64,000 nucleotides of DNA, from IMG/VR virus record IMGVR_UViG_3300025141_000034, positions 32,001-96,000 of that record. One strand, 5' to 3'. This document shows positions 26,585 to 62,023 of the stretch, one piece after another (within the stretch, counting starts at the first letter, position 1; every line of letters begins with the position of its first letter). Source of the DNA: a virus. Both the position numbers and the translations under genes were made by a program. The notes beneath the pieces are model-generated. The model was not told the origin of the DNA. It searched no databases and saw nothing but the letters and a program-made list of their open reading frames with translations.

Positions 26585-27292
26585 ATGGGCTTCTTAGACC
26601 ACAGTACTAATAATATTATTTTGGATGCTGTTTTAACAGACAAGGGAAGACAGCTTCTTTCAAGAAACGACGGATCCTTTCAAATTGTTAAATACGCGCT
26701 ATCTGACGACGAAGTGGATTATACAATTGTTAAGAAATTTGGACGAACAGTCGGAAAAGAGAAGATAGAGAAGAATACACCAATTCTCGAGGCACTTACA
26801 ACTACAAATGTTGCTCAAAAATATAGGCTGAGAAGCATATCAGTGCCGAATCTCACAAGGCTACCGTCGTTAACACTAGACGGAGTGACGTCTGATACGA
26901 TAACACTGAATGTTGTTAACACTAGAAGCTCATCAGTCACAGTAAAGCAGTCAATCGGCGGTGATCAGCTAGTTCCAACTGAGCTAGTTGACCAGGTCTT
27001 TAGAGTGACAATGAACAACCTATTCCTACAACTATCCGGTGTTAGGCCTGTCACAATTGATTCTGAGAATATTGCAACATATCTTGTTACGAGAGGGTCT
27101 TCACTAGACACTGTAACAGGTGGCGCATCTTTCGCAGGAACAGTTCAGGTTAAATCATCACTCACAACAACGATGTTCAATACATACGGTGTAGCTAGTG
27201 ATAAAACACTAATTAGAACATATGTCACCGTGACTGGTCAACAGTCAGGTGCAGTTAAGAGCTTTTTAATTAAGATCAATAAGACGTCATGA
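26585..27292 (+). CDS. virion/baseplate structural protein
   Basis: LDAVLTDKGRQLL...IVKYALSDDEVDY resembles the N-terminus of fibre-attachment/baseplate proteins. Strong SD. Confidence 0.7.
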   Translation: MGFLDHSTNNIILDAVLTDKGRQLLSRNDGSFQIVKYALSDDEVDYTIVKKFGRTVGKEKIEKNTPILEALTTTNVAQKYRLRSISVPNLTRLPSLTLDGVTSDTITLNVVNTRSSSVTVKQSIGGDQLVPTELVDQVFRVTMNNLFLQLSGVRPVTIDSENIATYLVTRGSSLDTVTGGASFAGTVQVKSSLTTTMFNTYGVASDKTLIRTYVTVTGQQSGAVKSFLIKINKTS

Positions 27293-49178: not shown

Positions 49179-49216
49179 GTCTGTTAACTGATTGACGTGA
49201 ATTGATACCATTTATA

Positions 49217-50092
49217 GTGATCATCTCTCACAAGAATAGATTTGTCTTCTTTAAGCCTATGAAGGTCGCCGGATCTAGCGTGGAAGTAGCACTTAGTGAG
49301 CACTGCGATGATGGTGATATTTTAACAGGAACTAATCACGTAGATGAGATTTCGTCAGATGAATATGAGTATCCTACAAGAAATAACATCGTAAAGCATA
49401 CACATAAGGGAGATGTTGCATTAGCAATAATGAGGAAGACAGGAAATATTCACAAGGTCACTCCTGAGATGATTGAGGCGGGATTAAGAATAGAGATCTT
49501 AGAGCCGAGATTTCACATGCATGCGCTTCCAGAGCAGATCTTAGATCAGGACATTCTTAAAGAAGGGTATAGAAAAATAACTGTTGTGAGAAATCCGTGG
49601 GACATGATCATTTCATTTTTTTGGTGGTCATTCTATACATCTCCAAGCGGATATGTTGACTCTGGTGGCACCGTTCATGAGAGCAATGGTGACTTAGGTT
49701 TTACTCCGAGAAGTCATCCAGAAGCTGCTCCTCGACCGTTAGACGATGCAGATACGCTGAGTCGTAAGCTAGAGATCTTTTGTCAGCTGACAGGTGACTT
49801 TAAGGGTCCCTTGGGTGTTGAGAAAGATAAGAATGTTCTTGATTGGTTCATAGAGACGAATAAAAAGTATTATCAGATTGATTACGATTATGTGATAAGA
49901 CACGAAAGCCTCCAGCATGATTACAATCAACTCTGTAGTGATCTCGATCTGCCTCCTTCAAGACTGCCTAGATTAAAAAGCAGTCAGAGAAAGATAAGAC
50001 TGCCATATCAGGATTACTTTAACGAGTGGACTAGGTCTCACATTGATGATAGGGTAGCAATGTGGATTGAAAAATTTGGATACTCATTTTAA
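49217..50092 (+). CDS. sulfotransferase (Sulfotransfer_2-like, PAPS-dependent)
   Basis: IISHKNRFVFFKPMKVAGSSVE (5'-PSB loop), TVVRNPWDMIISFF (3'-PB motif), DYVIRHESLQHDY, and C-terminal YQDYF...IEKFGYSF. Start is probably the GTG at 49217 (ORF open from 49202). Confidence 0.8.
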   Translation: MIISHKNRFVFFKPMKVAGSSVEVALSEHCDDGDILTGTNHVDEISSDEYEYPTRNNIVKHTHKGDVALAIMRKTGNIHKVTPEMIEAGLRIEILEPRFHMHALPEQILDQDILKEGYRKITVVRNPWDMIISFFWWSFYTSPSGYVDSGGTVHESNGDLGFTPRSHPEAAPRPLDDADTLSRKLEIFCQLTGDFKGPLGVEKDKNVLDWFIETNKKYYQIDYDYVIRHESLQHDYNQLCSDLDLPPSRLPRLKSSQRKIRLPYQDYFNEWTRSHIDDRVAMWIEKFGYSF

Positions 50093-50110
50093 TTTAATGA
50101 TGATATCTTA

Positions 50111-50117
50111 ATACTTA
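50111..50117 (+). promoter_or_regulatory. putative late promoter ATACTTA
   Basis: ATANTTA motif, here about 90 nt before the start codon, immediately before a structured leader. Confidence 0.5.
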
Positions 50118-50120
50118 GCG

Positions 50121-50183
50121 TTAAGCCCGATGCACGGTATAAGGCGGAACCTACACGTTAGCATTGGAAGCATGTAGGCTTAA
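50121..50183 (+). ncRNA. candidate structured 5'-leader RNA (pseudoknot)
   Basis: CCGATGC(50127-33)/GCATTGG(50161-67) crosses CCTACA(50150-55)/TGTAGG(50173-78), and both are enclosed by TTAAG/CTTAA. A GC-richer patch in an AT-rich gap. Confidence 0.5.
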
Positions 50184-50207
50184 ACACAAAAAATAAAAGG
50201 AGAAATT

Positions 50208-50687
50208 ATGCCAAAGGTAAAATATACATCATCTGCGGGACTAGTTCAGTCAGCAGGAGATGATGTTCAAATCGAGGGAACACTTCGTCTTCGAGCCACG
50301 AGTGCTCCAAGCCTGACAGTCAAGTATGCTGCAGCAGCTGTTCCAGGTACTTCAAATCAGACTATCACCATTGCCCAGCTAAAGACCGGCATTCTATATG
50401 ACGATCCTGAAGGTGCAGGAACATGGACGCTTCCGACAGCAACGTTGCTTTTGGCAGGTCTTCCAGGATATGCTGTCGGTGATTGTCTAGACTTTTCTGT
50501 CATTAACAATGCTACGACAGGTGCAGACGAGATAATTACTATGGCAGTGGGAACCGGTGGCACAGCTGCTGGAAATATGCTAGTTGCTGCTCCAAATGTT
50601 ACTGAGGACCAGGAAAATTCCGGAAGTGCAATGTTTAGAATTAGAATTACATCATCTTCAGCGTATGTGTGCTATAGATTAGCATAG
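50208..50687 (+). CDS. putative head decoration / small virion protein
   Basis: 159-aa A/T/G-rich beta protein (TWTLPTA...GDCLDFSVIN) with strong SD AAGGAG, near the MCP. Confidence 0.6.
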   Translation: MPKVKYTSSAGLVQSAGDDVQIEGTLRLRATSAPSLTVKYAAAAVPGTSNQTITIAQLKTGILYDDPEGAGTWTLPTATLLLAGLPGYAVGDCLDFSVINNATTGADEIITMAVGTGGTAAGNMLVAAPNVTEDQENSGSAMFRIRITSSSAYVCYRLA

Positions 50688-50709: not shown

Positions 50710-50741
50710 TAAAAGCACCTCTTTTTACAGGGGTGCTTTTA
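50710..50741 (+). terminator. intrinsic (possibly bidirectional) terminator
   Basis: TAAAAGCACCTCT-TTTTAC-AGGGGTGCTTTTA hairpin with A/T flanks. Confidence 0.8.
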
Positions 50742-50773: not shown

Positions 50774-50780
50774 ATAATTA
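50774..50780 (+). promoter_or_regulatory. putative late promoter ATAATTA (tubulin gene)
   Basis: ATANTTA motif between the terminator and the ATG at 50797. Confidence 0.5.
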
Positions 50781-50796
50781 TCTATAGGGCTGCTTT

Positions 50797-52029
50797 ATGG
50801 CGTCTAGCATGAGAACCCTTAAGAAAAACTACAGGAAAGAACCACCAAAAGAGCGTAAGAAGAAAGAAACTAACTCTAAATTTTACGCCGACCAGGACAT
50901 GGTGGAAAATAACCTAACGCTAGACGATAATAGCAAGCAAGAGCGAAAGCCAGCCTCACCTAAAGGGGAGATTAAGAGAGATATGACCAGTACTAATGAC
51001 GATTTTGATTTTGTAGCAGACTATGATGATGCTGTGGTCGGAGAGAGTGAAACTCTTCTTCCTGGAAACACAGCACCTTCGTCACTTTCCGTCGGTTTTG
51101 TCGGTGTAGGTGGGGGTGGCGGAAAGATGGCAAAGGCCTTTATAGATCTAGGATTTACTCAGACTCTGGTTGTGAATACCACAGACAAGGATCAGCCAAC
51201 TGAACTGGGAGAGGATCACTTCCTTCTCATTCCAGGTGCAGACGGTGTAGGAAAGAATGTTGAGTTAGGTCGTCAGATTCTATCTAATAATAGCGCACTT
51301 GTTGAGGATCATCTTAGATCTAAGGTTGGAAGAGTTGACTGGCTATTTGTTCTTGCAGGCGGCGGCGGTGGGACAGGAAGCTCTTGTTACTCACTGGACT
51401 CAGCACTTCAGCGATATCTTAAGTCAGTATCTGCTTCTGGAAATGTTGTCTATGTAGTGACATCGCCTACAGCGCAGGAGCTCTTGAACCCGACGATTAA
51501 GAAGAACTATGAGTCATTACTGTCAGATGTCACAGGATCAGCGCATGTGGTTATAGACAATGAGAGACAGCTACAGCTACTTAGAGGAAAGGTTGGCATG
51601 CTCGGGCTCTATCCTTCTGCAAATAAGAACTTTGCAAAATTGATTGCACAGGTTCTTAAGCTATCTTCAGAATCTTCACCAATTCAGACATTTGATTCCA
51701 AAGATCTTGAAGTTTGTCTCTCAACAAAGGGAAGACTCTTTCTCGGAACAACAGTTGTTAAGGATCCAAGCGATCTAAACCTGGGATCGATGATTTATCA
51801 GAACTGCATGACGAAGTCTCCATGTCCCTCACCTAGCGGTAAGATAAAGACAGGTGTTTTGTTGCTTGTAGTTACTGAGGCGATGGCCTCCGATCCGGCA
51901 ATAAGCACTCAGCTCGAGGCTGCAATATCTTATGTCGGCGGAAGAACTGATGCACTATTCTCAGGTGTCTACGTTAGAGAGGGATTGCCGGGGCTTGTTG
52001 CTATTTCTGCCCTAGGCGGAATTGAGTAA
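50797..52029 (+). CDS. tubulin/FtsZ-superfamily GTPase
   Basis: T1 loop FVGVGGGGGKMA, VNT..D, T3 GADGVGKNVELG, signature LAGGGGGTGS, VIDNE, T7 loop FDSKDL, and a C-terminal activation-type domain. Confidence 0.88.
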   Translation: MASSMRTLKKNYRKEPPKERKKKETNSKFYADQDMVENNLTLDDNSKQERKPASPKGEIKRDMTSTNDDFDFVADYDDAVVGESETLLPGNTAPSSLSVGFVGVGGGGGKMAKAFIDLGFTQTLVVNTTDKDQPTELGEDHFLLIPGADGVGKNVELGRQILSNNSALVEDHLRSKVGRVDWLFVLAGGGGGTGSSCYSLDSALQRYLKSVSASGNVVYVVTSPTAQELLNPTIKKNYESLLSDVTGSAHVVIDNERQLQLLRGKVGMLGLYPSANKNFAKLIAQVLKLSSESSPIQTFDSKDLEVCLSTKGRLFLGTTVVKDPSDLNLGSMIYQNCMTKSPCPSPSGKIKTGVLLLVVTEAMASDPAISTQLEAAISYVGGRTDALFSGVYVREGLPGLVAISALGGIE

Positions 52030-52130
52030 AAAATAAGAAATATTTATATACCCCGCTTTCAAAGATGCTGAAGACTTTACTCTGTACTCTTTGTTAAATA
52101 TTTTCATCATTGAATCTCCCGTTTAAGTCC

Positions 52131-52147
52131 ATATTTATGGATAGTTA
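52131..52147 (+). promoter_or_regulatory. tandem putative late promoters ATATTTA / ATAGTTA
   Basis: Two ATANTTA copies upstream of the neck operon; a third copy at 52040-52046. Confidence 0.5.
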
Positions 52148-52167
52148 TCTTAGTAACCGGAGTGTCA

Positions 52168-55307: not shown

Positions 55308-58300
55308 ATGGCCGAACAGACCTTCAGATCACCAGGATTTTTTGAGAGAGAGATCGACCTATCCGGGAGAGTTCAGGAAGTTGCAGGAGTCCCCGCAGGT
55401 ATCATTGGAACATCAGAATTTGGTCCAGCATTTATTCCCGTGACACTTGGATCGTTTGCAGACTTCAAAGAAAAATTTGGTGACTTAGACTCAACCAAAT
55501 TTGGGCCCTACGCTGTTAATGAGTTTCTTAAGAATAGATCTGCAGTGACATTTATAAGGGTTCTTGGTGCCGGAGCAAATTCAGAAAGCACTGATATTCA
55601 AAATACTGTAAACCAGGGAACTGTTAAGAATGCAGGATTTAGAATTAAAGGGTCTGCTGCAACAGAGGCACCTGGTGAAAAGGGACATAAGGGTGCAGTT
55701 CAATTTATAGCTGCAAAACACGCCCTACAGACAAATGAGGCATTTGGCTATCCGATCTTTACTGATAATGATAGTTTTGATGTATCTGCCGGTGGTGATG
55801 TCTTTCTTGTCAGGGGGATGATCTTTACGTCAACTGGTAGCCGTGTACAGATTCTTCCATACTATGCAAATTATCCCGTTACAGCGTCTGTTGAGGATAT
55901 TGCAGCAGTTGGACCTGATATCAATGATTCCGTAAGCTATAAGAAGTTTAAAATAGTTCTTTCAAGCTCCGCGGGAGCAACATTTGCCAATGATGATGGA
56001 GTTGCTGGAATTAGAATCTACACAGCGTCACTTAACCCAACAAGCGATGACTACATTGGAAAGACATTAAATACAGACCCCACTAGATTTCAGGAGGAGC
56101 AGCACCTGCTCTACGCTGACTTCGCTGTAGAGGATGAGGTTGCATCTGTTACATCCTATGTTGCAATTCTTTCAGGATCAGCGTCAACATCTGCTGGGTC
56201 AGGAGATACCTCACAGACTTATCGTGATATGTACGGTAGATTTGACACAAGATATAGTCCATCAAAGACAACGTTCTTTACGTCGCAGTTATTTGGAAAT
56301 GTTAAGTACAATCTCTTTCACTTTGAGACCATCTCTGACGGAGCAAATACATGTGACAAGTATAAGATCTCAATATCAAACCTTAGAAAGTCAACTGACC
56401 CCAGTGTTGAGTATGGATCGTTTACAGTTTTGGTAAGAAATTTTGGTGACTCTGATACAAGTCCAGAAATCTTAGAGCAGTATCCCCTTTGCACACTTGA
56501 CCCAACTGATGAAAATTTCGTTGGAAGAAAGATCGGTGACCTTAGTGTTAAGTACAATTTTGATGCACTAAGTGAGGATGAAAGAAGATTTGTTGTGAAG
56601 GGAGATTATCCAAATGTCTCTAGCAGGATTAGGATTGTCTTTAGTGACGATCTAAAGAATGGAAATGTTCCAGCTAGCGCACTACCCTTTGGATTTAGAG
56701 GTCTACCAGCGCTGAAGACAAATAATCTGCTTTCTGATACGACATCGACATCAGACGTAAGGCAAATTATTAAAGACGTCTTAAACGGAGGCTCAGACGG
56801 AACAAGACTGGCATTCATTACCGGATCAAATTCAGGGCGACCTGGAATTGCAGACGGTGGTGTAATAGTAGGGTCAATTGTTCCACCAGTTCCGATGACG
56901 TTTAAAGCAACTCAGGGAACCATGGGAACTTCTGGATATGCCGGGAAGCCAGGAACTAATGAGAGGGTTAATTCAAAGTACTACTGGGGTGTGAAGACAA
57001 CACGAGTCCCACTGACAGGATCTCTGTCTAATGCTGTGTTGAATTCAAACGCATCATCAGAGACAAATGAGCTAGTCAGAAGTTATACAAAGCTCTTAGG
57101 TATTCAAAAGCTAGATGCTCTTGTTACCGGCTCAGGCGCAGATGTCTTCTGTAGTAATGAGTTTACCCTTAATAAGGTTGCTTTAAGCACAACACTTGAA
57201 AGCGGTGCAACAACAAGAACGTTAATTAATACAATTGTACAGAGCCTTACTGGAACTGCAGATGAGCACATGCTAGAGGCTGCGTATATTAGAGATGGAA
57301 GAATCAGCAAAGGAAAGAGTTACACAGTTAGAGAGAAGGGTGTTGCAGACCACAGAGTATCGCTAGGTTCTCTCTTAACGTTGACATCGTCAGTATATTT
57401 TAACAGGTTTACAAAGTACGCAAAATTCACTAACATCATGCACGGCGGATTTGATGGAAATAATATTCTAGATCTGGACATGTCAAGAATGAATGATAGA
57501 GCAACAACAGTTGACTCTAGAGGAAAGGCCGGAAGGTCCAGACCGGAAGGTTCGACAGATCTTGATACCGGTCTAGATGCAACATCTACAAGTGGAGCAG
57601 GAAAGAATAACAATGCTGTCTTCTCATACAGATCAGCAATTGATATCATGACAGATCCGATGGTGACAAGAATTAATATTCTAGCTGTTCCTGGAATTAG
57701 AGAAGGCTTTGTGACTGATCACGCAGCTGATAAGACAAGGGAGTATAGCCAGGCAATATATCTGATGGATATTCCAAGCTACACAGACGGTGATGTTAGG
57801 ATATTTACCAGCGATGACTTTAGGCCCAATGTCACAAAGACGCGAGACAGGCTTGATAGAAGATCAATAGATAACAACTACGCTGCAACCTATTTTCCTG
57901 ACGTCACAATCACAGACGATAGGAATGGAAATGCTGTTAGGGTTCCATCTTCTGTTATAGCGCTTTCTGCACTTGGATTCAATGACGCAGTTTCTTATCC
58001 CTGGTTCGCACCCGCAGGATTTAATAGAGCTGCTTTGTCAAATGTTGTCAACGTTGCAACAAGATTAAATAATGCTGATAGAGATGATCTGTACGATTCC
58101 AGAATTAATCCGATAGCATCTTTCCCACAAGCTGGGTTTGTTATATTCGGTCAGAAGACGCTACAGCAGGCAAAGTCTGCGCTAGACAGGGTAAACGTGA
58201 GAAGAATGCTTCTGGAGGTTAAGAGAATAGTCTCTAATGCAGCTAAAAAGCTGGTGTTTGAACAAAATACACCTGCCACAAGATCAAAATTCATAGCTCA

Positions 58301-58499
58301 GGTAACTCCCATGCTAGCAACAATTCAAAGCCAGCAGGGAATAGATAAGTTCCGTGTAGTTATGGATGAGAGTAACAATACTGTAGAGGATATTGAATCT
58401 AATAAGCTGAACGGAAGAATAGTTCTAGTTCCCACAAGAGCAATTGAATTTATTGCTATTGATTTCATTATCACTAATTCAGGTGTAAGCTTTGAGTAA
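55308..58499 (+). CDS. gp18: tail sheath protein 1
   Basis: SPGFFEREIDLS, GPAFIP, PWFAPAGFNRA, LYDSRINPI, FGQKTLQ..SALDRVNVRRML, FEQN, PTRAIEFIAIDF. Confidence 0.93.
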   Translation: MAEQTFRSPGFFEREIDLSGRVQEVAGVPAGIIGTSEFGPAFIPVTLGSFADFKEKFGDLDSTKFGPYAVNEFLKNRSAVTFIRVLGAGANSESTDIQNTVNQGTVKNAGFRIKGSAATEAPGEKGHKGAVQFIAAKHALQTNEAFGYPIFTDNDSFDVSAGGDVFLVRGMIFTSTGSRVQILPYYANYPVTASVEDIAAVGPDINDSVSYKKFKIVLSSSAGATFANDDGVAGIRIYTASLNPTSDDYIGKTLNTDPTRFQEEQHLLYADFAVEDEVASVTSYVAILSGSASTSAGSGDTSQTYRDMYGRFDTRYSPSKTTFFTSQLFGNVKYNLFHFETISDGANTCDKYKISISNLRKSTDPSVEYGSFTVLVRNFGDSDTSPEILEQYPLCTLDPTDENFVGRKIGDLSVKYNFDALSEDERRFVVKGDYPNVSSRIRIVFSDDLKNGNVPASALPFGFRGLPALKTNNLLSDTTSTSDVRQIIKDVLNGGSDGTRLAFITGSNSGRPGIADGGVIVGSIVPPVPMTFKATQGTMGTSGYAGKPGTNERVNSKYYWGVKTTRVPLTGSLSNAVLNSNASSETNELVRSYTKLLGIQKLDALVTGSGADVFCSNEFTLNKVALSTTLESGATTRTLINTIVQSLTGTADEHMLEAAYIRDGRISKGKSYTVREKGVADHRVSLGSLLTLTSSVYFNRFTKYAKFTNIMHGGFDGNNILDLDMSRMNDRATTVDSRGKAGRSRPEGSTDLDTGLDATSTSGAGKNNNAVFSYRSAIDIMTDPMVTRINILAVPGIREGFVTDHAADKTREYSQAIYLMDIPSYTDGDVRIFTSDDFRPNVTKTRDRLDRRSIDNNYAATYFPDVTITDDRNGNAVRVPSSVIALSALGFNDAVSYPWFAPAGFNRAALSNVVNVATRLNNADRDDLYDSRINPIASFPQAGFVIFGQKTLQQAKSALDRVNVRRMLLEVKRIVSNAAKKLVFEQNTPATRSKFIAQVTPMLATIQSQQGIDKFRVVMDESNNTVEDIESNKLNGRIVLVPTRAIEFIAIDFIITNSGVSFE

Positions 58500-58537: not shown

Positions 58538-61500
58538 ATGGCTGAGCTGACATTCAAAAGTGCTGGAGTTAGCACGAGAGAAATAGATCTTTCATCGTCT
58601 AGCGTAACGGGTCCGGTAGGAGTTCCTGCTGGTGTCATTGGAACAGCTGATCAGGGACCAGCGTTTGTTCCCGTAACAGTTGCTAATTTTACTGAGTTTG
58701 TATCAACATTTGGACCAACAGATGGTGAGAAATTTGGACCGCTTGCTGTTAATGAGTGGCTGAAAAATGCACAGTCGTGCACATACGTCCGTGTTCTCGG
58801 TGTGGGTGATGGTAAGAAGAGAAATACGTCTACAGGAAAGGTTACAAATGCAGGATTCATAGTTGGTGCCAAGCAGGTTCAACCAAACGGTCTTGTAGGA
58901 ACTAATCCATACGCAAACACACACGGTGACAGAGGAAACGTTCACTTTCTCGGATGCTACATGTCAGAGTCGGCTGGTAGTACAGTGTTTAGTAGTGCTG
59001 GAGGTCCACAGGCTTCACTTGCTTTTGCAAAAGCAAAGCTCACTATGGCAGACGGTGATAATAATACTAACGGACAGTTTACAGAAGGCGAATATGTCAT
59101 AATCGTATCCCAGGACGGTACAAAAAGGGTATATGTTCTTTCTGATGGTAGTGAAAGTGGTGCAGCTGCAACCGGCGCTGTTTGTACCACTTCCACTGAC
59201 ATGGGCTCAGCAAATCTTTCCTCCGATGTTGCAGCTTTGGGTACATGTATAGCTGTAAACAACAACCTGAACACACATGGGCAGTATTTAATTTTAAATG
59301 AACTTAAAGCTGCAATTTCTCACGCAAACGGTCACAATGGAAAGATTACATGTAGCTCTGATGTAGCCAACACTGACGGCCCAGTATCAATTACACTAAC
59401 ACAGGCAATAGCAGGTGTTGACGGAAACACTGTAATAACTACAAATATAAGTCAGCTAACTACTGTTAATTTTGGAGGCGGGGGTGCAATTGCAGTTCCC
59501 ATCCTCCGCGGAATTCTCATGTCGGCATCCGGTGTCATGCCGCTTCTCTCAGGAAATTTCCAGGTTACAGTCCCGGGATCAGGACCATCGTCAGCTGCAA
59601 TCGGCAGAGACAAAGATGCCACCCTAAGGGGAGGTCTAACTGGATCGATGATACTAAGCAGCCAGGACTTTGTTCTATTCCTCAACGGTCACAAGGGATT
59701 GGGTTCTGATCCTAGAATCATCACTGCGTCGATGGATCCTAACTCTCCTGCCTATATGTCTAGAGTTCTAAACACAGATCCCGCGATGATTGAGCAGAAG
59801 GGTCACCTACTCTACGCTCACTACGACGTTCATCCAGCGATGGCAGTTCCTACAGGTTCTGGTATCCTGACTCCGGGTGCTACAGAGTTTCATAATAGTG
59901 AATATAATGATTGTATATTCATCACAACGGGATCACTGAGCGCTGTGAACTTTGAAGGAAAGGGTCAAGCTGGCGGAAGCGCCACAGTTCCGGAGTATAG
60001 GTCGTGGGAGGATAGATTCACATCAGCAAAGTCACCCTACGTGATCTCACAGGACTTTGGTGGAAAGCCGTATGATCTATTTAGGGTAGAGTCACTATCT
60101 GACGGATCAGGCGTCAGCACTAAATATAAGATCTCAATTGAGGGTCTAGCTAAGTCTAACTCTGACGTTAATAAATTTGGAAAGTTTGACCTCGTCGTTA
60201 GGGACTTTTACGACACAGACAATGACAAGGTTGTCCTTGAGTCATTTAGGGGTCTAAGCCTAGATAATGAATCTGATAGATACTTTGCCAGGGTCATCGG
60301 TGATCAGAAGACATACTTTGACTTCGATCAGTCGTCAGACTCTCAGAAGATAGTCGTCGACGGCGATTTCACGAATCAGTCAAGATATATTCGTGTCAAG
60401 GTGAGCAACACACAGAGAGCAGGTGAGGTTCCTGACAACGCCCTCCCACTAGGCTTCAGAGGTCCTAGCCACCTGGTGACATCAGGCTCAGATCTTGTAG
60501 CGACTCTCGGTCACGGTGCTGCTAACTTTGTTACTGTTCAAACAGGATCAATGAAAGAGCTTACTGAGCTACCAATTCCATACAGGGATAACTTGGCTCT
60601 CGGGACAGGTGACAAGAAGAGGGTTTCATCTCAACTATACTGGGGAATCCAGACAACAAGAAAGACAGATCCCACAGAGCCCAATAAACCTGATCTCTTC
60701 GACAGGTCGTTTGAAGGATTCGCGAAGTACTTCCCAGACTTTGCACTAAGCTATCAGAAGTTCTCAATTGGAAATAATGCAGGAAAAGCAGATACATTTG
60801 CAAATGGAATTCTAGACTCTGATAGGTTCAATAATAACAAGTTCACGCTTGAGAATGTCAAGGTCACAACAGGATCAGACACATACGCTAATCCTCGGGA
60901 ATGGGCTAGCGCATCATACACACGTGCCGGCGGCGTAGGAACTGATAGAGATAATAAGACGCGGGCATTTAGCGTAGACGATCTAGGTATCGTTGGTAAT
61001 AGAACATATGCCAAGTTCACATTCCTTCTTCAGGGAGGGTTTAACGGAACGAACATCTTCAACAAGGATAGGTCTAACCTATCTGACAATGCTGCCAAGA
61101 GAGAGATGGATGACTCCACAAATCAAGGCGGAAAGGACGGTTGCACAGTCGCATCATTCAGAAAGGCTGTAGATGTAATGGGCAATAAGTCTGATGTTGA
61201 GATTAAGCTTCTAGCAATTCCCGGCATGAGAGACGAGGCCATTACAGATTACGCAACTGATGCAGTTGAGAATAGGTTTGACTCACTCTACATCATGGAT
61301 ATTGAGGAGAAGGATGTTCTTAACAATGTTGTAACATCGTCAGCACAGGACATAAGTGTTAGCGACACAGTGACAACGTTTAAGAATCGTGCTCTCGACT
61401 CATCGTTTGCAGCTGCATACTTCCCAGATGTTGTGATTCAGGATCCAAATAAGAGAACAAATGTTAGGTGCCCTCCGTCAGTAGCTGTTCTTGGAGCATT

Positions 61501-62023
61501 CTCCCTCAACGACGCTATCGGTCATCCGTGGTTCGCTCCTGCAGGATTCTCCCGAGGTGCGCTGACATCTGTCATACAGGCATCAGTTGACCTTAACAGG
61601 GCAAATCTAGATAATCTCTACGACGCTGACATCAATCCGATTACGGATTTCCCAGGAACCGGTGTCGTTGTCTGGGGTCAGAAGACGCTTCTAGCAGCTG
61701 CATCTGCTCTTGACAGGGTTAACGTAAGAAGGCTTCTGATAGACATCAGAAGAAAGGTGAGAGCTATCGCAAACACCCTTCTATTCGAACCCAATAGGGA
61801 GTCCACCCTGGAGAAATTCTCCGGTCTTGTCAATCCAATCCTGCAGAAGATCCAGGAGAAGAGCGGTCTGGCTCGCTACAAGGTGATCATCGATACGACC
61901 ACCACGACACAGGCAGACATAGAGAATAACACACTTCGAGGAAAGATCTTCGTTCAACCCACAAGAACTGCAGAGTTCATAGCACTAGACTTCGTTGTTT
62001 CAAATGCAGGCGCAGAAGTCTAG
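58538..62023 (+). CDS. gp18: tail sheath protein 2
   Basis: SAGVSTREIDLS, GPAFVP, PWFAPAGFSRG, LYDADINPI, WGQKTL..SALDRVNVRRLL, FEPN, PTRTAEFIALDF. Confidence 0.93.
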   Translation: MAELTFKSAGVSTREIDLSSSSVTGPVGVPAGVIGTADQGPAFVPVTVANFTEFVSTFGPTDGEKFGPLAVNEWLKNAQSCTYVRVLGVGDGKKRNTSTGKVTNAGFIVGAKQVQPNGLVGTNPYANTHGDRGNVHFLGCYMSESAGSTVFSSAGGPQASLAFAKAKLTMADGDNNTNGQFTEGEYVIIVSQDGTKRVYVLSDGSESGAAATGAVCTTSTDMGSANLSSDVAALGTCIAVNNNLNTHGQYLILNELKAAISHANGHNGKITCSSDVANTDGPVSITLTQAIAGVDGNTVITTNISQLTTVNFGGGGAIAVPILRGILMSASGVMPLLSGNFQVTVPGSGPSSAAIGRDKDATLRGGLTGSMILSSQDFVLFLNGHKGLGSDPRIITASMDPNSPAYMSRVLNTDPAMIEQKGHLLYAHYDVHPAMAVPTGSGILTPGATEFHNSEYNDCIFITTGSLSAVNFEGKGQAGGSATVPEYRSWEDRFTSAKSPYVISQDFGGKPYDLFRVESLSDGSGVSTKYKISIEGLAKSNSDVNKFGKFDLVVRDFYDTDNDKVVLESFRGLSLDNESDRYFARVIGDQKTYFDFDQSSDSQKIVVDGDFTNQSRYIRVKVSNTQRAGEVPDNALPLGFRGPSHLVTSGSDLVATLGHGAANFVTVQTGSMKELTELPIPYRDNLALGTGDKKRVSSQLYWGIQTTRKTDPTEPNKPDLFDRSFEGFAKYFPDFALSYQKFSIGNNAGKADTFANGILDSDRFNNNKFTLENVKVTTGSDTYANPREWASASYTRAGGVGTDRDNKTRAFSVDDLGIVGNRTYAKFTFLLQGGFNGTNIFNKDRSNLSDNAAKREMDDSTNQGGKDGCTVASFRKAVDVMGNKSDVEIKLLAIPGMRDEAITDYATDAVENRFDSLYIMDIEEKDVLNNVVTSSAQDISVSDTVTTFKNRALDSSFAAAYFPDVVIQDPNKRTNVRCPPSVAVLGAFSLNDAIGHPWFAPAGFSRGALTSVIQASVDLNRANLDNLYDADINPITDFPGTGVVVWGQKTLLAAASALDRVNVRRLLIDIRRKVRAIANTLLFEPNRESTLEKFSGLVNPILQKIQEKSGLARYKVIIDTTTTTQADIENNTLRGKIFVQPTRTAEFIALDFVVSNAGAEV

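Follow-up and report, generated by a model that had tools for sequence, protein, structure and literature searches.

An intact tubulin/FtsZ-superfamily protein of a virus-only family in a T4-like jumbo phage

We analyzed a 64,000-nucleotide (nt) stretch of viral DNA, bases 32001-96000 of the 125,024-nt IMG/VR virus record IMGVR_UViG_3300025141_000034, and characterized a tubulin/FtsZ-superfamily GTPase gene that it carries. This whole stretch is called the window, and all positions are given in its numbering. The viral tubulin/FtsZ homologue that it encodes is real, intact, and under strong constraint, and it belongs to a new family; we infer its function. To our knowledge, phage tubulins have so far been tied to two cases, PhuZ of the nucleus-forming phiKZ-like phages and TubZ of plasmid-like prophages. 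The family described here adds a third and far larger group of viral tubulins, which occurs in uncultured T4-like phages that are abundant in the sea, is encoded amid virion genes, and has an inverted domain plan. Its existence suggests that a cytoskeleton is also built by phages that lack a phage nucleus.

Passages of a marine jumbo-phage survey describe tubulin as unique to a phiKZ-like cluster (PMC9123017), and in excerpts of a 2026 jumbo-phage review PhuZ is the sole tubulin mentioned (PMC13282480). Excerpts of another source link phage tubulin to the multisubunit RNA polymerase and name two phage representatives of the family (PMC7824862), and the words "phage", "viral", "virus", and "PhuZ" are all absent from a 2023 FtsZ/tubulin phylogeny (PMC9871819). 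Parts of a further paper describe a gene of phage G that resembles FtsZ/CetZ (PMC12484599); it gave no match in tblastn with the window protein. Full-text searching of the literature turned up no description of a tubulin/FtsZ family of T4-like phages, a search that did not extend to the supplementary tables of PMC9123017, which could list such genes.

An intact superfamily member and its virus-only family

The first-pass annotation of the window had recognized an intact G-rich signature, a T1 loop, and both acidic residues of the T7 loop, and all three are present in the translation of the open reading frame (ORF; Table 1). It had placed the start at position 50774, which is in fact the first base of an ATAATTA motif lying 23 nt upstream of the ATG at 50797. 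Nucleotide loops T1-T6 accompany the G-rich signature, and the two-domain tubulin/FtsZ fold is complete in an AlphaFold2 model built on 85 sequences (mean predicted local distance difference test score, pLDDT, 89.3; predicted template modelling score 0.80; core near 98). Residues G105, G108, G119, N127, D132, G150, K153, G192, G194, N255, N276, and D300 are invariant in 85/85 aligned sequences, at least 90% of which retain D303. As the alignment spans relatives that are only 20-29% identical outside the family, this conservation indicates that both the nucleotide pocket and the catalytic pair of T7 persist even at that distance. In the PDB sequence match, FDSKD aligns with LDFAD of the Staphylococcus aureus FtsZ T7 loop, whose acids we take to be D210 and D213 in the chain numbering. 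The T7-loop aspartates of FtsZ, TubZ, and tubulin complete the active site of the neighboring subunit, and GTPase activity at the T7 acids is predicted here from the conserved residues. The ORF almost certainly encodes an intact tubulin/FtsZ-superfamily GTPase, and the protein probably polymerizes.

The two ends of the protein are also as first described. The sequence stops at ...ALGGIE, directly after the last predicted strand (E400-409), and so lacks a C-terminal tail; 18 aligned family members likewise stop 1-3 residues past the last conserved glycine, and a C-terminal count across 120 family proteins located the marker motif in 36 of them only. At the other end, residues 1 to ~90 are charged and predicted to be disordered, with pLDDT of 47-62 over the first ~70. 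This extension has a conserved internal order. Family proteins begin with the pattern M-[AP]-S-[TS]-[VML]-[KR] (120 proteins; MASTVK is commonest, with 17 cases). Of the 120, 89 have S at position 3, 58 have V at position 5, and 70 have K or R at position 6. Then comes a linker in which E, K, D, S, and P abound, and the next motif starts anywhere from position 11 to position 145 (median 60). That motif, [DE][DE]F[DG]F[VLI], occurs in 113 of the 120 proteins, at a constant spacing of 34-35 residues from the T1 loop that follows it; its phenylalanines F70 and F72 are unchanged in 18/18 aligned sequences, and the model places a short helix at residues 72-76.

In FtsZ the order is core, variable linker, and conserved C-terminal peptide, the last of which binds membrane anchors. 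As read from sequence, the family plan is the FtsZ plan inverted: N-terminal peptide, variable disordered linker, DDFDF, and core. Because the plan is that of FtsZ backwards, we read the N-terminal peptide, by analogy with the FtsZ C-terminal peptide, as a probable tether to a partner. A capsid-targeting tag shared among proteins was also considered and rejected, as the peptide pattern occurs once in the 125-kb record, with the tubulin ORF as its sole match.

Standard models recognize the protein poorly. Pfam PF00091 scores 27.6 bits (E 4.3e-6), under its 33-bit cut-off, which points to divergence and not to absence of homology. PF13809 (Tubulin_2) reaches 10.8 bits (E 0.28) against a cut-off of 27, and the NCBIfam FtsZ equivalog TIGR00065 32.1 bits against 295.2. 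For the window protein, PF22453 (TubZ-like_C) gave no report at E up to 1, FtsZ_C gave no Pfam match, and PHROGs gave nothing at E <= 0.1, and hence no match to the PhuZ family phrog_4733, which phiKZ PhuZ itself matches at 4.6e-118.

Sequence and structure comparisons place it more clearly. A single-sequence search of the PDB gave S. aureus FtsZ chains as the best match (E 2.3e-7), and the family profile gave FtsZ at 1e-8, CetZ (3zid) at 1.1e-6, and c-st TubZ at 1.3e-4, with neither PhuZ nor eukaryotic tubulin among the best 60 of 63 profile matches. Foldseek returned Bacillus subtilis and S. aureus FtsZ at 1.8e-20, CetZ at 6e-20, and B. cereus TubZ at 1.1e-19; the fold lead of CetZ over TubZ lies within 1 Z unit and is a tie. 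By hhalign, c-st TubZ reaches 99.4% probability (E 3.2e-21, 233 columns), Escherichia coli FtsZ 99.2% (298 columns), and phiKZ PhuZ 89.3% over 99 columns. Among viral structure models (BFVD), an uncultured-phage "FtsZ" is best at 1.2e-25, and PhuZ models follow at ~6e-11 to ~1e-10. Identity is 17-24% to FtsZ and CetZ and 16-21% to FtsZ structures. The window protein is a full superfamily member that is equidistant from FtsZ, CetZ, and TubZ and a member of none. Its IDNE motif, which had been called tubulin-like, is present; the label itself carries no weight, as both sequence and fold lie nearest FtsZ, CetZ, and TubZ. The annotation was right to separate the protein from PhuZ and TubZ, given the lack of a phrog_4733 match, the weak hhalign result for PhuZ, and the TubZ models that it does not reach. 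Nor is it a recent capture of a host FtsZ or CetZ: beside the low identity to both, its nearest relatives outside the family are virus-borne tubulins, at 100-150 bits compared with 37.7 bits for the best FtsZ.

Each known system shares some features with the family. With FtsZ it has in common the GGGTG-type signature, the T1-T6 loops, the T7 DxxD, and a short conserved peptide borne on a disordered linker of variable length; unlike in FtsZ, the peptide and linker of the window protein are N-terminal, there is no C-terminal linker or peptide, and the gene lies on a viral record amid head genes and not in a cellular division context. CetZ (PDB 4b45, 3zid, 4b46) is archaeal and cellular, whereas the window family is viral; the N-terminal peptide, linker, and DDFDF were seen here in the window family alone, in comparisons that did not include CetZ. 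TubZ, of Bacillus plasmids and Clostridium phage c-st (PDB 4ei7, 2xka, 4xcq), is similarly phage- or plasmid-borne, and the wider viral clade around the family carries PF13809 and PF22453. In contrast to TubZ, whose C-terminal tail is the TubR-binding part, the window protein has no C-terminal helix or tail after the core, and its carriers are T4-like and lytic-looking. The neighbors (capsid, sulfotransferase-like, 159-aa, and neck genes) include nothing resembling TubR or tubC, although no TubR-profile or repeat search was made. PhuZ of the Chimalliviridae is likewise a tubulin-superfamily protein of jumbo phages; the virion genes of the window are T4-type and not phiKZ-type. The acidic terminal segment of PhuZ contacts neighboring subunits, and DDFDF could be its analogue in the window family.

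Relatives of the window protein are numerous, which speaks against its being absent from related viral contigs. A word-indexed search scored 8,000 candidates and returned 996 proteins at E <= 0.001; the best 120 of these (E <= 7.6e-147, 56-92% identity) originate from metagenomes, marine ones among them, in which their contigs reach 288 kb, and bear, where a source name is given, the automatic Joint Genome Institute label "cell division GTPase FtsZ". We refer to this family as the first tier. An exhaustive profile search of 1.84 billion representatives, chosen at the 50% identity level at which the first tier collapses to a few, gave 917 proteins at E <= 0.001, 350 at <= 1e-10, and 41 at <= 1e-30. 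A second tier, or sister family, scores 100-150 bits at 20-29% identity, and its proteins carry PF00091, often with PF13809 and PF22453 (37 representatives scanned). On a superfamily tree, a branch of length 1.9 with 97% support sets the family apart, as a clade, from the second tier; with single FtsZ, TubZ, and PhuZ outgroups and branches of 5-10 substitutions per site, the placement of the outgroups on this tree is unreliable. Four second-tier proteins (P0220, P0262, P0266, and P0233) have unusual architectures: two are tubulins with insertions of inteins that contain LAGLIDADG endonucleases, and fusions to a PilM/FtsA-like actin-fold domain and to an AAA+ lid domain occur in one protein each.

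First-tier proteins occur in at least 125 of 601 pattern-matched IMG/VR stretches and second-tier proteins in 506 of 549, and the nearest ESM-Atlas clusters are 87-100% viral. A scan of one genome per prokaryote species, with an 18-sequence family alignment as the query, found five loci, all on contigs of metagenome-assembled genomes, one of them (101,404 nt) equal in length to an IMG/VR viral contig. No tblastn match was found in 50,697 deposited phage records with either the window protein (E <= 0.01) or a sister-family protein (E <= 0.001). The family is large and virus-only, residing in uncultured, mostly marine, viral contigs.

The core of the protein is under very strong purifying selection. 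In 3/3 close pairs (the window protein against three relatives), the ratio of nonsynonymous to synonymous substitution rates (dN/dS) is 0.018-0.037 in the core and 0.18-0.35 in residues 1-66, at dS values of 0.5-1.5 that are partly saturated. Among relatives whose tubulin is less than 70% identical to the window protein, the tubulin is more conserved than TerL in 27/27 loci, portal in 16/16, protease in 7/7, g403 in 12/13, sheath in 11/12, and g221 in 11/15, and is about level with the capsid protein (6/15) and the neck protein (9/16). Each of 10 large records chosen for carrying the tubulin has a single full-length copy.

Gene position and transcription signals

The window consists of one-directional phage DNA, and PHROGs annotation of 19 ORFs identifies a T4-type morphogenesis block around the tubulin gene, in agreement with the first-pass description of a phage with T4-type morphogenesis. 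Elsewhere the record encodes a fragment of a family A polymerase, a gp32-like single-stranded-DNA-binding protein (SSB), RecA, a DnaB-type helicase, ribonucleotide reductase, and ClpP. The record is 37% complete (CheckV), and related records are 195-281 kb in size, which indicates a jumbo-sized genome. The search for chimallin that had been called for was run: the profile phrog_4795 found none in five records (the record of the window, 37% complete, and relatives of 73%, 92%, 78%, and 100%, among them a 281-kb record at 92% and a 195-kb record at 100%), nor did a single-sequence search of the same five, and the profile finds the phiKZ chimallin at E 1.8e-232. Because no chimallin matched in these records and the virion genes are T4-type, the carrier is a T4-like jumbo phage that is not nucleus-forming.

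Within the window, the tubulin gene does lie between capsid and neck genes, as first noted. A sulfotransferase-like gene and a 159-aa gene (49202-50687) separate it from the capsid gene and constitute a variable insert; in distant relatives without this insert, the tubulin gene directly follows the capsid gene, and the neck gene directly follows the tubulin gene in relatives of the same arrangement. This order does not hold for the family at large. We compared 80 first-tier loci, each with flanks of up to 6 kb; these loci are related to one another, so that the counts overstate independence. In 50 of the 80, a TerL, portal, protease, capsid, or neck gene lies no more than 6 kb from the tubulin gene, in four arrangements: capsid-tubulin-neck, or tubulin-neck at a contig end (20 loci); upstream of TerL (23); portal-g298-tubulin-protease (6); and protease-tubulin-capsid (1). 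On a quick maximum-likelihood tree of 81 proteins, the capsid-tubulin-neck arrangement falls on both sides of the midpoint, the upstream-of-TerL class is one clade, and well-supported branches force at least five changes; the arrangements require 18 changes in all, compared with a shuffled mean of 47. The second-tier gene is upstream of TerL in 69/81 loci (1.3-1.6 kb upstream in L042 and L027, the two checked), upstream of portal, protease, and capsid genes in four more, and after portal and protease in L018. The tubulin gene moves, for the most part inside the head and packaging block or next to it.

The annotation had also reported a terminator and an ATANTTA motif before the gene. Both are there, the former as a terminator-like hairpin of 13 pairs, with a hairpin at the corresponding place in six close relatives (L006-L011); the surrounding 3.3-kb region has four terminator-like sites compared with 1.9 expected from shuffles. 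ATANTTA has 48 plus-strand copies in the 125,024 nt, of which 15 fall in 2,254 intergenic bases (1.8%), where 0.9 would be expected if copies were uniform, and the other 19 permutations of its letters have 2-6 intergenic copies. The gp25-like gene, the genes at 26585, 33551, and 45675, the tubulin, neck, both sheath, and tube genes, and further genes have copies 12-43 nt upstream of their starts. These data support the view that ATANTTA is a promoter-like element common to the tubulin, neck, sheath, and tube genes, with putative promoter activity. The T4 late promoter is a single AT-rich, -10-like element, and this analogy, together with the distribution of ATANTTA, supports late co-expression of the tubulin gene with virion genes as a probable arrangement.

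In relatives, the motif is present within 70 nt upstream of the tubulin gene in 11 of the 33 loci that could be evaluated, the rest of the 80 having failed the start-codon rule or having less than 70 nt upstream. It precedes the gene in 8/11 capsid-tubulin-neck loci, 1/5 loci without a recognized head gene, and 0/1 portal-tubulin-protease loci. A longer word, GAATAATTA, was tried as a signal and rejected, with two copies in the window against 1.26 expected, which is the chance level. Two further occurrences of the short motif are worth recording: the 132-nt gap before the neck gene (52030-52161) contains three copies (52040, 52131, and 52141), and an ATACTTA copy at 50111 stands at the start of the long leader of the 159-aa gene.

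Possible functions of the protein

We propose that the protein is a phage-specific, GTP-dependent, filament-forming member of the tubulin/FtsZ superfamily and the founding member of a virus-only family. Subunits would polymerize head to tail and hydrolyze GTP in the polymer, activated through the T7 loop. The N-terminal peptide on its flexible linker may play the role of the FtsZ C-terminal peptide or the TubZ C-terminal tail and attach the filament to a partner, perhaps the membrane or some component of the capsid or packaging machinery, and the DDFDF segment may contact the core or a neighboring subunit. The gene would be transcribed late, alongside the virion genes and from an ATANTTA element of its own, and the filament would spatially organize a late virion step, for example by placing or moving proheads or the packaging site, in a cell without a phage nucleus. 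For the combined reading, a late-made, polymerizing, cytoskeletal phage GTPase tethered to a partner by its N-terminal peptide, we see the case as evenly balanced. A more specific version, in which a tail-first filament grips proheads or the packaging machinery and so organizes capsid assembly, filling, or head-tail joining, is tentative, and we would not yet bet on it.

Several observations weigh against this proposal. In addition to the relatedness of the loci, 13 of the 80 have the order tubulin-PhoH-tail fibre, and in 17 no head gene was recognized; the neighbors seen across the three of these 17 that were annotated include GroEL, a sigma factor, a ClpP-like protease, a DNA-binding protein, HD hydrolases, an ATPase, and sugar-metabolism genes. 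ATANTTA precedes the gene in 2/8 PhoH-type loci and in 0/8 upstream-of-TerL loci. Among 14 records picked by TerL similarity, most of them fragments, a strong tubulin match was found in one, and of the two that are at least 90% complete, a 322-kb record is without a match and a 186-kb record has only a 284-aa, stripped-down homologue. The tubulin gene is widespread in the clade and not universal. All of the Pfam, NCBIfam, and PHROGs models score under their cut-offs, and the conservation of the N-terminal peptide could also serve translation initiation.

The closest alternative, which overlaps with the proposed filament and differs only in its cargo, is that the protein centers the replicating phage DNA or factory in the manner of PhuZ. 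The best-studied phage tubulin, PhuZ, does this according to excerpts of the 2026 review (PMC13282480) and provides a precedent; the jumbo-sized genome fits as well, and in some relatives the tubulin lies away from head genes, beside a DNA-binding protein and a sigma factor (L115). We nonetheless consider it doubtful, given five records without chimallin, the weak similarity to PhuZ with no phrog_4733 match, and a promoter-like motif common to structural genes. The location of the gene in a head module with late-type signals, and a conserved N-terminal peptide followed by a dispensable-looking linker, would also suit a protein packaged in the virion, either loaded into the prohead as T4 internal proteins and Alt are and injected to act as the next infection begins, or forming an internal capsid structure. 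T4-type tags, however, are common to several cargo proteins, whereas this peptide is on no other ORF of the record. No conserved (L/I)xE cut site lies past it, and in the nearest candidate, LLPEN, several members, the window protein among them, replace the E by G, D, S, or A. The intact T7 residues and the extreme conservation of the core, moreover, fit a working polymer better than passive cargo, so that packaging appears unlikely.

Among the three functions that the first-pass annotation had raised (capsid trafficking, factory positioning, and FtsZ mimicry), the last is the least likely. A tail-less look-alike could antagonize host division by co-assembling with FtsZ or capping it, an idea that draws on the absence of the C-terminal peptide linking FtsZ to membrane anchors and on FtsZ being the best PDB sequence match. 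That match, however, amounts to only 16-21% identity to FtsZ structures, and the TIGR00065 score of 32.1 bits is far from 295.2. Known phage division blockers are small early proteins, and the tubulin gene has a late-type signal; its conservation amid diverged phage proteins is also more in keeping with a polymer that interacts with itself than with a mimic that has to follow the FtsZ of different hosts. Such antagonism is improbable. TubZ-like partition of a plasmid-like prophage or a pseudolysogenic genome is more improbable still, even though c-st TubZ gives the 99.4% hhalign probability (E 3.2e-21), TubZ structures tie for the best fold match, and relatives outside the family carry the PF22453 TubZ-like_C domain. 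The protein has no C-terminal tail, its gene is flanked by capsid and neck genes and not by a small DNA-binding adaptor, the record carries T4-like, lytic-type structural and replication genes, and a Pfam scan of 82 ORFs in this 37%-complete record revealed no integrase or partition gene.

If the protein polymerizes, it would be a new, minimal cytomotive filament with which to test how terminal peptides link filaments to their cargo, and it would open a way to study how very large capsids are assembled in small marine cells. If the filament indeed handles capsids, tubulin-based organization would be widespread in large phages and not a specialty of the Chimalliviridae.

Feature coordinates and other observations

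Table 1. Positions of the tubulin gene, its parts, and neighboring features in the window
Feature	Position	Strand	Remarks
TerL gene	37853		PHROGs
gp20-like portal gene	39503		PHROGs
gp21-like prohead protease gene	42497		PHROGs
496-aa gene	45675		preceded by ATANTTA
gp23-like major capsid protein gene, 643 aa	47196-49127	+	phrog_138, E 2.6e-71
Terminator-like hairpin, 3' of the 159-aa gene	50710-50741	+	13 pairs, then T-rich tail; putative terminator
ATAATTA (ATANTTA copy), late-promoter-like	50774-50780	+	23 nt before start codon; putative promoter
Tubulin/FtsZ-superfamily GTPase gene, 410 aa + stop	50797-52029	+	ATG start
Conserved N-terminal peptide MASSMRTL	50797-50820	+	residues 1-8
Variable charged disordered linker	50821-50997	+	residues 9-67
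Acidic-aromatic DDFDFV motif	50998-51015	+	residues 68-73; then YDD...LLPxN
Globular tubulin/FtsZ core	51076-52026	+	residues 94-410; GTPase and activation domains, without C-terminal tail
T1 loop GVGGGGGK	51103-51126	+	residues 103-110
T4 signature GGGGGTGS	51358-51381	+	residues 188-195
IDNE			residues 253-256
T7 loop FDSKD	51691-51705	+	residues 299-303; both acidic residues
Neck/head-tail adaptor-like gene, 396 aa	52162-53352	+	phrog_211, E 1.1e-8
Two tandem sheath paralogues	55308 and 58538		PHROGs
Tube gene	62078		PHROGs
Baseplate hub gene	62665		PHROGs

Some other features of the record and its relatives were recorded along the way. A tRNA scan found no tRNA genes in the window. Upstream of the window, record bases 1-32000 (G000:C1; also L002 and L003) hold a glycan-synthesis cluster of ~32 kb with many glycosyltransferases, a GDP-mannose 4,6-dehydratase, NeuB, a cytidylyltransferase, a carbamoyltransferase, and methyltransferases. 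In the 643-aa capsid protein, phrog_138 matches two stretches, and the best gp23-like stretch comprises residues 370-626; some of the initial ~370 residues may be additional sequence. The sheath paralogues (55308-58499, 1063 aa, and 58538-62023, 1161 aa) match phrog_23 only in their C-terminal third and are kept as a tandem pair in relatives.

TerL-related phages also carry a second kind of tubulin/FtsZ-like ORF, of ~288 aa and without the GGGTG signature, between a mini family A polymerase and a gp32-like SSB (L266:1255-2121, G004:C1:162051-162887, G006:C1:40209-41054, and G016:C1:75406-76236). This stripped-down ORF was not found in the record of the window or in G002. It stands beside a full-length tubulin in two complete genomes and alone in a third.

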